This document shows positions 10,631 through 22,441 of a stretch of 64,000 nucleotides of DNA, in pieces (positions within the stretch are counted from its first letter, which is position 1; each line of letters opens with the position of its first letter). Origin of the DNA: a virus (lineage: Duplodnaviria > Heunggongvirae > Uroviricota > Caudoviricetes). The translations under genes were made by a program, and so were the position numbers. The DNA is taken from the IMG/VR virus record IMGVR_UViG_3300042901_002340; one strand, written 5' to 3'. The notes under the pieces were generated by a model. That model did not search any database. It was not told the DNA's origin and saw only the letters and a program-made list of their open reading frames with translations.

Positions 10631-10656
10631 AAAAACCAGCTATTAAGCTGGTTTTT
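10631..10656. terminator. rho-independent terminator
   Basis: AAAAACCAGC-TATTAA-GCTGGTTTTT inverted repeat downstream of 10683..11141. Confidence 0.8.
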
Positions 10657-10682: not shown

Positions 10683-11141
10683 TTATAGCTGCTGTTCTAA
10701 TTCCTCAGTCTCTTCCTCATCATCAGGGGTTTCTTCAGTTTCTACCTCTTCTTCCTCTTCTGTCTCACTATCTTCATTGTCTTCTTCATCATCGTATTCC
10801 TCGTCTTCGTCTTCGTCTTCATCCTCGTCTTCATCAGATTCCATAGGATATTCAAATTCACCCATCAGCCATTCAGAAACTTCCTGTACATCATCCTTGG
10901 ATGTTGCTATGTGATCAGAAGCCCAATCGTGCCCATTATTTAAAAGCTCATCAACCTTATCCGGATCCATCTTTAATATTTCCTCAACATGATGTTTTAT
11001 TGTTGCAAGATTTCTAAAGAACATGTAATGCTTTCTATCGTCACTATTGCTCTCGTTTGTTACTGCTAAAACCTCCTCGTTGTTTACGATTTCTGGTTTT
11101 TCGTTATTTTTGAATTGTTCAAATGAAGCTATTCTTTCCAT
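10683..11141 (-). CDS. putative head-internal protein with acidic tail
   Basis: N-terminal MERIASFEQF motif; ~45-residue D/E-rich C-terminus. Confidence 0.75.
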   Translation of the reverse strand: MERIASFEQFKNNEKPEIVNNEEVLAVTNESNSDDRKHYMFFRNLATIKHHVEEILKMDPDKVDELLNNGHDWASDHIATSKDDVQEVSEWLMGEFEYPMESDEDEDEDEDEDEEYDDEEDNEDSETEEEEEVETEETPDDEEETEELEQQL

Positions 11142-11160
11142 CTTTGTGTATTTTTTTTAA

Positions 11161-11170
11161 TTATATATCC
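11161..11170 (-). promoter_or_regulatory. putative late promoter GGATATATAA
   Basis: Recurrent DGATATATA motif shortly upstream of starts (13 sites). Confidence 0.6.
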
Positions 11171-11218
11171 ATATGAATTAATTTTTATTATATCGAGGTG
11201 CCTTTGTACGATATTATA

Positions 11219-12079
11219 TTAGTCTAGAGATCCGCCGCAAGTTGGGCAGAATTTCCAGTTTTGTTTTTTCATTCTAGTACCACAACCTGTACAATATGAT
11301 CTGATCTCTGATACCTCCACTGGTTTACCAGATCTTGGTAGTATTTTATATTCGGAAGTCCATGATGCATAGGAATTATAAGTTCCATTGTCATTATCAA
11401 AACTCTGGCTGGATTTACCACCTTTCTCTATTCTTCCAGTCTCTATGCTATTAGAAGATTTAGATCTTGTAGAGCTAGAATTAATATCAGATGTTGAATT
11501 ACCAAGATTTGAACAAAAATATGTGTTTGTTGTTCCACTGGTATAAGTTACATCACCTGTGGAATTTGACGTAAAGGTTGAAACCGGAGTGGAATAGTTT
11601 CCATAATCTCTAAAAAATGGAGGAGTGTTTGTTGTGAGAGTGCTGGGAAGACCCCAGGTTGTTACTGTTCCTGTATTAGTCCATGCAAAGTTTTGAAAAT
11701 ACTCAGCATGAAAATCAACTTTCAGATTACCATTTTTTGCAATTGCAGCTTTAGCCCCCGCTGTGTCTTCGACTTCATAGGTGGAGAAAACAAGTTTTTT
11801 GTTTTCGTCTATGAACCGATCAAGGAAATATCTCTGTCCAGGTTTTAAAACCAATCCAGAGGAACTAATGATTTGGCCGTTTATGTAGATCTTAGCTACA
11901 TAAGAAATTTGTGTGGGATTATAGAGCTCAATCTGAAACTCTTGTCCATCTTCCAGATAAACCTTTTCGGCTCCTGTGTTTACGTCGTAAACTTTCTGAC
12001 GATTGCTGGATACCGCGATCCAGGCTTGTGGTTTGTCAACGGAAAGTCCGCTGAGAATACCAGGTTTTTTGTTTTTCAT
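11219..12079 (-). CDS. hypothetical protein with C-terminal zinc ribbon
   Basis: CTGCG...CPTCG; S/T-rich linker; start reassigned to MKNKKPG. Confidence 0.75.
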   Translation of the reverse strand: MKNKKPGILSGLSVDKPQAWIAVSSNRQKVYDVNTGAEKVYLEDGQEFQIELYNPTQISYVAKIYINGQIISSSGLVLKPGQRYFLDRFIDENKKLVFSTYEVEDTAGAKAAIAKNGNLKVDFHAEYFQNFAWTNTGTVTTWGLPSTLTTNTPPFFRDYGNYSTPVSTFTSNSTGDVTYTSGTTNTYFCSNLGNSTSDINSSSTRSKSSNSIETGRIEKGGKSSQSFDNDNGTYNSYASWTSEYKILPRSGKPVEVSEIRSYCTGCGTRMKKQNWKFCPTCGGSLD

Positions 12080-12104
12080 TTTTACCTTATTTATTTTTTT
12101 AAAA

Positions 12105-12178
12105 TCCCATCGATGCTCATTCGAACATCTCAAAGGTCGTTAAACCCGGGACATCAAGTACTAAAGGCACCTTCAATA
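12105..12178 (-). ncRNA. candidate structured 5' leader RNA
   Basis: GC-richer island with two hairpins inside a GUCCC/GGGAU stem, and an arm complementary to the 3' UTR at 11191-11209. Confidence 0.5.
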
Positions 12179-12187
12179 CAATTGATA

Positions 12188-12197
12188 TTATATATCC
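12188..12197 (-). promoter_or_regulatory. putative late promoter GGATATATAA
   Basis: Recurrent motif. Confidence 0.6.
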
Positions 12198-12647
12198 TTA
12201 CCAGGAATCCTCATCATAATCATCATAGGAACTATAGGAATCGCTGGAGTCTTCGTCCCATTCCTCTTCCTCACCTATGAATCCTCTGTCATGTTCTTTA
12301 ATGACGCTTGACCATTCGTCACCATCCTTAAACCAAACATACGTTTGATCAGGTATTTCGCTTACCCATTCAATCTTGGAATCACTTACCCATCCTCCAG
12401 GAATAAACGAGTCTAAATTTTCAATCAGATCCTCAACCTCATTCAGTATATCATTATCGAATGGGTGATCCTCTATATAAATTTCAATATAACCATTGAA
12501 ATTTATATCCAGAGAAGCACTAAACAATGTACAGAATTTTAAGAAATCCTCATTAAGTTCCAAGCCTGATTTAATTTCATCGATCTGATCCTTAAGGAAT
12601 TTCTTATTGGAGGTTAAATCAACGGTTAAAAAATAATTACTTTTCAT
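12198..12647 (-). CDS. acidic hypothetical protein
   Basis: ORF with D/E-rich tail. Confidence 0.7.
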   Translation of the reverse strand: MKSNYFLTVDLTSNKKFLKDQIDEIKSGLELNEDFLKFCTLFSASLDINFNGYIEIYIEDHPFDNDILNEVEDLIENLDSFIPGGWVSDSKIEWVSEIPDQTYVWFKDGDEWSSVIKEHDRGFIGEEEEWDEDSSDSYSSYDDYDEDSW

Positions 12648-21979: not shown

Positions 21980-22441
21980 TGGATCATGAGGGATTCGAAC
22001 CCTCGTGTTGTTCAGATAGCCAAAGGACTCATTTACAGGCTTAGTAACTTTTTCTAATGCTACCAAATAATTCTCTTCTTTTACGATTAAGAGTATCAAC
22101 CATCGGAACAACATGTTACGTACAATGTTTCTAAAACGGTTTTCTTTCGCCCCCTGTATAGATCTCTAGGACCTGGATGCTCAAGGTACGCCTTGACGAC
22201 GACCAAAGTCTTGAGGGAGCCACCCGGATTTTCACATTTACTTTCCTTGGTAAGTGAGACCAGGTCGACTATGCCGCTATCGCAAGCTCAGTCTTAGCTA
22301 CGGGAGTACCAAACGCGTTGATAGATTCCCAAACGTTGTTTTTGCCGTTTAAAGCGTTGTATAGGTTATTATAGAGTTTCCAATACTAACTCTGCCTGCA
22401 TCTCAAAGAACTTATTCTGCCAATCAATACCGTGATGACCC
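21980..22441 (-). ncRNA. ssrA: tmRNA (~462 nt)
   Basis: Acceptor stem GGGUCAU/AUGAUCC-A with G3.U70; T-arm GAGGG-UUCGAAU-CCCUC; tag ORF 22346-22269 after UAAAC encodes GKNNVWESINAFGTPVAKTELAIAA*; CCA not encoded. Confidence 0.92.

Follow-up and report, generated by a model that had tools for sequence, protein, structure and literature searches.

Background

Pairing between the 5' and 3' ends of a message is already known from a few bacterial mRNAs. [quoted passage not shown] In icaR of Staphylococcus aureus, translation is repressed by the 3' UTR, which masks the Shine-Dalgarno region, as stated by Ruiz de los Mozos et al. (2013, PMC3868564). The hok mRNA of the hok/Sok system of plasmid R1 is characterized by the tac/fbi fold-back and by a metastable 5' structure, as summarised in PMC9841398. 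End pairing in bacterial and phage mRNAs has been documented for a handful of genes (these three and relatives of theirs), mostly by experiments in single organisms. Long-range duplexes of another kind, the stems that flank 16S and 23S rRNA and sites in phage T7 mRNA, are processed by RNase III.

The locus described here was found in a window of 64,000 nucleotides, by which the whole stretch of DNA that was analysed is meant, from a tailed-virus record (Caudoviricetes; IMG/VR record IMGVR_UViG_3300042901_002340). The complete record comprises 430,120 bp with direct terminal repeats. The window has a G+C content of 34%, and nearly every gene in it lies on one strand. A preliminary description of the window had drawn attention to a gene enclosed between two complementary arms and preceded by a folded leader, had taken these for an undescribed RNA-level cis-acting feature, and had proposed that the flanks of homologues be compared for covariation and that Rfam be searched. 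The new element is the combination of a leader that is a candidate RNA family of its own, a helix at the extreme 5' end and wide conservation in phages.

Both hbs and the phage locus have a short and probably monocistronic message whose structured 5' UTR is connected with its 3' UTR, in the phage case by prediction, through a helix of comparable size, and in both the ribosome-binding site is left free. The phage locus is unlike hbs in that the gene belongs to a phage, that the helix would take the very 5' end and stack on a three-way junction, that this helix is conserved across a large family with many versions of the arms, and that the feature is known from sequence alone. The phage ribosome-binding site lies outside the helices, unlike the masked region of icaR as that report presents it. 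The likeness to hok consists in the pairing, predicted for the phage message, of the 5' end with the 3' end in the full-length RNA and in the earlier, transient pairing of the same 5' element with nearby sequence; the closed form of hok is stable, as the phage helix is predicted to be (PMC9841398). Unlike in hok, the phage helices do not sequester the Shine-Dalgarno sequence, there is no antisense RNA, leader ORF or small toxin, the product being a soluble-looking protein of 286 amino acids, and trimming of the 3' end is not indicated. No convergent promoter-like feature, as a hok-type toxin/antisense arrangement would have, was seen in the leader. With the RNase III stems of rRNA and T7 the locus shares a long-range duplex, 23 bp in the window, that encloses a whole functional RNA; it differs in that the enclosed RNA is an mRNA and that the helix is too short in most relatives.

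Sequences compared

Related loci were fetched via the encoded protein (86 viral loci) and via the upstream neighbour of the gene (28 viral loci). A further 80 metagenome loci were fetched out of at least 483 that were detected. The leader covariance model, termed R1, was built from the viral leaders; the metagenome loci were not used in building it.

Layout of the locus and promoter-like motifs

The features of the locus, in the order of transcription and with the evidence on which each is based, are as follows.

12187..12197, minus strand: promoter-like motif GGATATATAAT, which includes GATATATA (8-mer enrichment; conservation)
12158..12182, minus strand: 5' arm of the long-range helix (sequence, folds, conservation in relatives)
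12099..12157, minus strand: three-way-junction leader (local fold, covariation, covariance model)
12148-12157 with 12099-12108, minus strand: leader stem P1 (local fold)
12134-12147, minus strand: leader hairpin P2 (local fold)
12130-12133, minus strand: leader junction UUGA (local fold)
12112-12129, minus strand: leader hairpin P3 (local fold)
12109-12111, minus strand: leader junction GAU (local fold)
12080..12098, minus strand: A-rich linker with Shine-Dalgarno-like AAGGU (12084-12088), before the ATG at 12079-12077 (folds)
11219..12079, minus strand: target ORF, 286 amino acids (ORF translation, structure model, homologues)
11187..11209, minus strand: 3' arm of the long-range helix, starting 10 nt past the stop codon (sequence, folds, conservation in close relatives)

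No 8-mer is more strongly enriched upstream of genes across the whole genome than GATATATA (73 upstream regions, 7.4-fold); the promoter named in the preliminary description is therefore a reasonable label for it as a motif, on sequence grounds. The promoter-like motif occurs in three exact copies in the window, each on the minus strand, and is without variation in five close relatives. The 3' end of GGATATATAAT lies 4 nt before the first paired base of the 5' arm. In the same genome TATATTTG is also enriched upstream of genes (64 upstream regions); it is of the TAnnTTTG type known from Bacteroidota, and the hosts of these phages are probably Bacteroidota. The next promoter motif in the window is located at 11160-11170, about 16 nt downstream of the 3' arm, with no terminator between the two, and for this reason the 3' arm may be internal to a longer transcript. 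In the family the 5' arm starts 4-8 nt past the promoter-like motif. Distant relatives, too, have such a motif immediately before the 5' arm, and in these as in many relatives the 3' arm is directly followed by an intrinsic terminator hairpin.

The three-way-junction leader

The leader that the preliminary description had proposed, a GUCCC/GGGAU stem holding the hairpins GGGUU-UAAC-GACCU and GAUGUUC-GAAU-GAGCAUC, was recovered as the same fold, with a predicted energy of -27.2 kcal/mol (z = -2.8). P1 is lengthened by UUGA/UUAA, and the 5' arm of the long-range helix adjoins P1 without a linker. In the alignment of viral leaders (n=64), 96.3% of cells are paired, versus 80% in shuffles and 34-52% in slid registers, and double changes occur at 13 of the 16 leader pairs. 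The metagenome set, whose alignment was fitted to the covariance model, has 99.1% paired and double changes at 14 of 16 pairs. At the base of P1 stands a G.U pair, without exception in the viral set and in 68 of the 71 metagenome sequences, and a U.G pair in P3 is nearly invariant in the viral alignment. The junction nucleotides and one strand of P3 are conserved in sequence beyond the needs of pairing; the P2 and P3 stems vary freely in sequence across relatives. Judged by these alignments, the leader is certainly a genuine structured RNA.

Model R1 has a single match in the phage's own genome. It matches 79 of 81 viral loci and, among the metagenome loci, 77 of 80, and each match lies directly before a gene of the target family. 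Rfam 15 gave no match to the leader at E <= 10 for the window sequence, at E <= 1 for 12 relatives or at the gathering score over the whole window, and nothing resembling a tRNA was reported by ARAGORN in the window. A ribozyme, of the hammerhead or another class, was rejected because the lengths of the junction strands (0, 4 and 3 nt) are unsuitable and Rfam has no match. The ORF can be extended upstream in frame to a TTG codon; this extension is not coding, because the loop sizes of the leader vary by non-multiples of three. The leader, about 60 nt long and absent from Rfam, is thus a candidate new RNA family. It is a module separate from the long-range helix and conserved even more widely, and it probably binds a protein or serves as a stabiliser.

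Between the leader and the coding region, the A-rich linker is found in every clade. It is unpaired in the local fold and forms a few weak pairs in the whole-transcript fold. In both folds AAGGU and the ATG lie outside the long-range and junction helices, so that the sequestration of the ribosome-binding site that defines the icaR/hok subtype of end-paired mRNAs does not occur here.

The long-range helix

On the minus strand, 12178-12158 (TATTGAAGGTGCCTTTAGTAC) is complementary to 11209-11191 (GTACAAAGGCACCTCGATA) over 19 pairs, one of them U.G (12175.11194), with two A residues bulged out (12172 and 12162). The arms are exactly those reported at the outset, and the helix is even longer, since four more pairs extend it outward (G12179.U11190, U-A, U-A and A12182-U11187) to a total of 23 bp. 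The predicted energy of the arms alone is -28.8 kcal/mol. In the partition function of a 1034-nt transcript the pairing probability is 0.88-1.0 for all pairs but one, which stands beside a bulge and has 0.50, and the duplex is present in the minimum free energy structure of a 1051-nt fold. The complementarity score is 42, compared with 17.1 +/- 3.1 and a maximum of 34 in 1000 shuffles of the 3' flank. Among the 135 genes with both intergenic regions, the target gene ranks first for the match between its upstream and downstream sequences (p = 0.004 versus mismatched partners); it is the only one of the 135 that stands out, and a genome-wide panhandle habit of the source phage was accordingly rejected. 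The gene thereby has the complementarity between 5' and 3' UTRs that is typical of end-paired mRNAs of the hbs, icaR and hok type, and its arms very probably pair in the mRNA.

Conservation and covariation of the arms

The comparison of homologues' flanks proposed in the preliminary description revealed complementary arms with compensatory changes throughout the family. The long-range helix is present in 107 of 119 distinct related loci (viral and metagenome together), in the form of 87 distinct arm-sequence pairs, and many compensatory changes must therefore have occurred. Scores of the arms with their own partners average 32.6, versus 16.0 +/- 3.2 with cross-clade partners; in 56 of 63 viral loci the score lies above the 95th percentile. 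The positions of the arms are constant, the one lying within a few bases of P1 and the other about 1-21 nt (mostly 2-11) past the stop codon. Their sequences are wholly different between clades, each with a matching 3' partner: the arm is UGUAUUGAAGGUGCCUUUAGUAC in the window and UAUACGUUAACUC in a distant clade, and further clades have CAAGUCCUUUACC, GUGAUGCCUACA, UUUAGGGUGUCUCA, GCCUUUUACCGUUU and others. Compensatory arm pairs are exemplified by GUGGUGCC/GGCACCAC versus GUGAUGCC/GGCAUCAC, and a wholly different pair by CAAGUCCUUUACC/GGUAAAGGACUUG. Direct repeats of one hairpin were considered as a source of the arms and rejected, for the 3' arm is always the complement of the loop and bulge positions of the 5' arm (GGUGCC versus GGCACC).

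In the distant clade B, 80.8% of cells are paired; shuffling the partners gives 72.4 +/- 1.5%, with none of 500 shuffles reaching the real value, and sliding the register gives 31-42%. Its double changes fall at positions flanking an almost invariant GUUAAC core, where the sets ACG/CGU, GUG/CAC and GCG/CGC replace one another. The compensatory changes expected of end-paired mRNAs are therefore present above both the shuffled and the slid controls. Most relatives have helices of 11-15 bp, as in clade B; the long helices of clade A are split by conserved bulges into segments of 4, 9-10 and 6-10 bp.

In five close relatives of the window locus the 5' arm is 100% identical, and the 3' arm has three variable positions. 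At two of them pairing is preserved, by a change from U-A to U.G and from G.U to G-C, and at the third a pair is lost. Identity to these relatives is 88-100% over the 5' arm and junction and 92-100% over the 3' arm, compared with 74-95% in the coding region and 67-80% in the rest of the 3' spacer.

In two clades the core of the helix, GGUGCC in the one and GUUAAC in the other, shows much stronger sequence conservation than pairing would demand. A protein that recognises the sequence, or a constraint on the DNA, could account for this; the helix may have a sequence-specific reader, or the first transcribed bases may be constrained. Avoidance of a restriction site was rejected as the reason for the conserved GTTAAC core, because 67 copies were seen elsewhere in clade-B loci where about 50 were expected.

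Local hairpin of the 5' arm

The 5' arm is self-complementary and in the window is predicted to form a local 9-bp hairpin of -6.7 kcal/mol. Self-complementarity is kept in the very different arms of other clades (AAGAGU...ACUCUU, CAAGUG...CACUUG and AAGCGGU...ACCGUUU). Across the family, local folding of the 5' segment has a mean z of -1.53, with 65% of loci below -1, and the complement of this segment in the 3' UTR has no such tendency (mean z = -0.22). A metastable local pairing that precedes the existence of the 3' partner, as in the hok-type fold-back, is thus predicted here as well.

Of the loci from which the long-range helix is missing, two (L186 and L194) have a stronger local 5' hairpin adjoining P1, of -9.0 and -7.8 kcal/mol, and these hairpins covary (UUAGG/CCUAA versus UUAGAG/CUCUAA). 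No compensating local 5' hairpin was found in L027, L032 and L075, which have lost the 3' arm, and the one in L051 is weak; L051 and L075 keep the sequence of the 5' arm. Replacement of a lost long-range helix by a local hairpin is thus suggestive and not a general pattern. The self-folding of the 5' arm points to a role in protecting the 5' end or in timing, and, most simply read, the 5' end would always be held in a helix, locally while the RNA is nascent and then with the 3' UTR.

Alternative explanations

Chance complementarity was considered because short inverted repeats are common in AT-rich DNA such as these spacers; it is vanishingly improbable, being refuted by the comparative data, with the top score of the genome, far above shuffles, and covariation in 107/119 loci. 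An inverted repeat acting in DNA, as the sites of an invertible segment, the ends of a mobile cassette or paired operators for a DNA-binding protein, would be in keeping with repeats that flank a whole gene, with arm pairs that are mostly pure Watson-Crick and with cores whose sequence is conserved and in part palindromic (GTTAAC; GAAAGG-TG-CCTTTC), and an RNA helix cannot be told from an inverted repeat in DNA by covariation alone. This explanation is nevertheless very unlikely. No inverted copy was found among 54 loci with a conserved upstream neighbour, all of which have the same orientation, and no empty or inverted site among the 28 loci found via the upstream neighbour, all of which carry the leader downstream in the same orientation; this argues against a DNA-level element and agrees with the earlier opinion that DNA inversion or excision was the less likely case. 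The immediate neighbours that were scanned gave no recombinase or transposase family match (the families matched were a DNA transfer protein, a glycosyltransferase and a methyltransferase, and most neighbours were without any match), and no transposase family was found in the target ORF. The locus therefore does not qualify as an insertion sequence or MITE with terminal inverted repeats, having no transposase, no empty sites and conserved upstream synteny, nor as an invertible segment, for which both orientations and a nearby recombinase would be expected among the 54 and 28 loci and their immediate neighbours. Positions of 1-nt bulges, which differ between the two arms, are conserved within clades, and they speak against recombination because recombination would homogenise the arms. 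The arms are also placed inside the transcription unit presumed from the positions of promoter-like and terminator-like motifs, and they directly adjoin a proven RNA helix. Internal G.U mismatches outnumber A.C mismatches 22:9 over all loci (nominal p = 0.03, from contexts that are not fully independent) and 11:4 in the viral loci alone (p = 0.12), and only the 5' copy folds locally, an asymmetry to be expected if G.U pairs on the sense strand matter. The feature is thus a selected RNA structure acting on its own message, as the preliminary description had supposed: the leader and the long-range pairing are both conserved with compensatory changes, and no Rfam family describes them.

At the level of RNA, the duplex could be a processing site at which the RNase III of the host cuts and frees a monocistronic mRNA from a longer transcript. 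The window helix, 23 bp with two bulges, could be a substrate, an RNase III stem having about two helical turns (roughly 20 bp or more); processing would make sense where the next gene follows without an intervening terminator, and the 5'/3' duplex of icaR is itself an RNase III substrate (PMC3868564). As the main explanation this is nonetheless decidedly unlikely, given that the cores of most relatives, those of clade B among them, measure 11-15 bp and often have a terminator of their own behind them, that conserved bulges break the long clade-A helices, and that no RNase III or dsRBD protein was found to be encoded by the phage, which leaves the host enzyme only. Excision by RNase III, suggested in the preliminary description, may be a local addition, and a family-wide role is unlikely; covalent circularisation of the mRNA, also suggested there, receives no support from the data. 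A riboswitch, another of the mechanisms listed there without a choice among them, would be a further candidate. Binding of a regulator of translation or decay to the junction, with or without the adjoining helix, is a minor possibility, and the regulator might be the zinc-ribbon protein of the gene itself. It would suit a leader that is exclusive to the target gene family, the over-conservation of the junction nucleotides, of the near-invariant G.U pair, of one P3 strand and likewise of the helix cores, and the basic zinc ribbon in which the protein ends. It sits less well with the position of the ribosome-binding site outside the structure and with the fold of the protein, for which VIA-align returned generic Ig-like beta-sandwiches alone (Z <= 6.5). 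Such binding is compatible with an RNA structure that keeps the 5' end paired.

Proposed mechanism

An RNA structure that acts on its own mRNA by keeping the 5' end paired, for stability or timing, is the best explanation, with a probability of roughly 0.6. The complementarity of the arms, its conservation with covariation, the leader fold and the exclusive association of the leader with this gene are results of the analysis; the transcript ends, the pairing in the cell and every functional consequence given below are inferred. Transcription would probably start a few bases past the GATATATA motif, and the mRNA would then begin with the 5' arm. In the nascent RNA the 5' arm would fold as a weak local hairpin stacked beside the P1-P2-P3 leader. 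Once transcribed, the segment 10 nt past the stop codon would displace this hairpin and form the far more stable 23-bp helix, which would be contiguous with P1 and would leave the coding region looped out between two stacked helices. The 5' end would then never be single-stranded, and the ribosome-binding site would remain free in the A-rich linker. The most likely effect would be to shield the message from nucleases whose action requires a free 5' end or whose cleavage sites lie in the leader, a stabilising function suggested by the likeness to hbs and hok, and the passage from nascent to full-length RNA might add a timing step.

A programmed two-state switch goes further and is unlikely. The hairpin would be the state of the nascent RNA and the panhandle that of the completed transcript, and the panhandle together with the junction would form a platform read by a phage or host factor. 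This factor might be the zinc-ribbon protein of the gene itself or the terminating ribosome, the latter being a candidate because the helix starts at the edge of the ribosome footprint. If such a switch exists, expression of the gene would be tied to whether its own mRNA is intact or complete, in a closed-loop-like control of quality or timing that is undescribed for phage mRNAs.

Apart from the switch, the protective structure is of interest for its natural variation. More than 100 phage loci from freshwater and marine samples amount to a rich natural compensatory mutagenesis. They offer a series of variants for the effect of end pairing on mRNA decay in hosts that are probably Bacteroidota, in which mRNA turnover is little studied. 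A 5' end that is paired locally and afterwards to the 3' UTR also represents a design principle, possibly applicable as a stabiliser of engineered transcripts.

The encoded protein

The structure model of the 286-residue protein comprises a beta-sandwich of approximately residues 17-126 plus strands at 212-248 (pLDDT mostly 80-94). A disordered insert rich in S, T and N occupies residues 131-209, and the C-terminus is a basic zinc ribbon with four cysteines (CxxC...CxxC). The designation as an uncharacterised Zn-ribbon protein holds in that the ribbon is C-terminal and no family could be assigned, with the reservation that the ribbon of the window copy falls below the Pfam cut-offs; it scores better in relatives. 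Beyond zinc ribbons, Pfam gave scattered weak matches in a minority of members (TssJ-like, Pam3 gp18 and CP2). There was no PHROG match for the protein, Foldseek against the PDB gave none at E <= 0.001, Atlas returned viral hypothetical clusters alone, and no longer, fused homologues were found. The family comprises 871 homologues at 95% identity and below, all of them from viruses.

Genes and terminator-like hairpin around the target gene

The target gene, the 286-aa ORF enclosed by the panhandle, is adjoined on either side by a small protein gene, and a hairpin lies farther downstream. Positions are those of the window.

12198-12647, small protein gene adjoining the target gene
10683-11141, small protein gene adjoining the target gene on the other side
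10631-10656, perfect 11-bp hairpin, AAAAACCAGC-TATT-AAGCTGGTTTTT, with an A-run and a T-run at its flanks

The products of both neighbours carry strongly acidic C-terminal tails with D/E runs, and neither was assigned to a Pfam or PHROG family. The upstream neighbour (149 aa) and the target gene kept their synteny at every one of the 28 loci that were retrieved via that neighbour. The hairpin looks like a bidirectional intrinsic terminator situated past gene 10683-11141, and it is probably the first terminator 3' of the target gene.

tRNA and tmRNA genes

No tRNA or tmRNA was detected by ARAGORN in the whole window, and an Rfam search of the window at gathering scores returned zero families; both searches included the stretch 21980-22441, for which a phage tmRNA had been proposed. 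Among the related loci carrying the target-gene family, one subclade (L035, L171, L173, L193, and L195) has a tRNA gene directly 5' of the leader, with the 5' arm of the panhandle coming within about 10-50 nt after it.

L035:649-734, tRNA (Rfam score 58 bits)

In the other four loci, GGTTCGAATCC T-arm motifs were seen 5' of the leader.

Promoter-like motifs

Across the whole phage genome (G000), window included, the motif GATATATA was enriched 5' of genes (73 upstream regions), as was a second, distinct motif, TATATTTG(C), genome-wide (64 upstream regions), which is of the Bacteroidota TAnnTTTG type. The two motifs suggest two promoter classes, one phage-specific and one host-type, and a Bacteroidota host.

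Complementary flanks elsewhere in the genome

The second-best upstream/downstream complementarity of the genome (score 35) was located outside the window, at G000:C1:154020-154400, where the flanks enclose a doubtful ORF of 67 aa. These flanks have near-identical segments of ~25 nt in common, with the palindrome ACATAGTATGT inside, and for this reason what lies there may not be a panhandle but a hairpin element that is repeated, or else a non-coding RNA.
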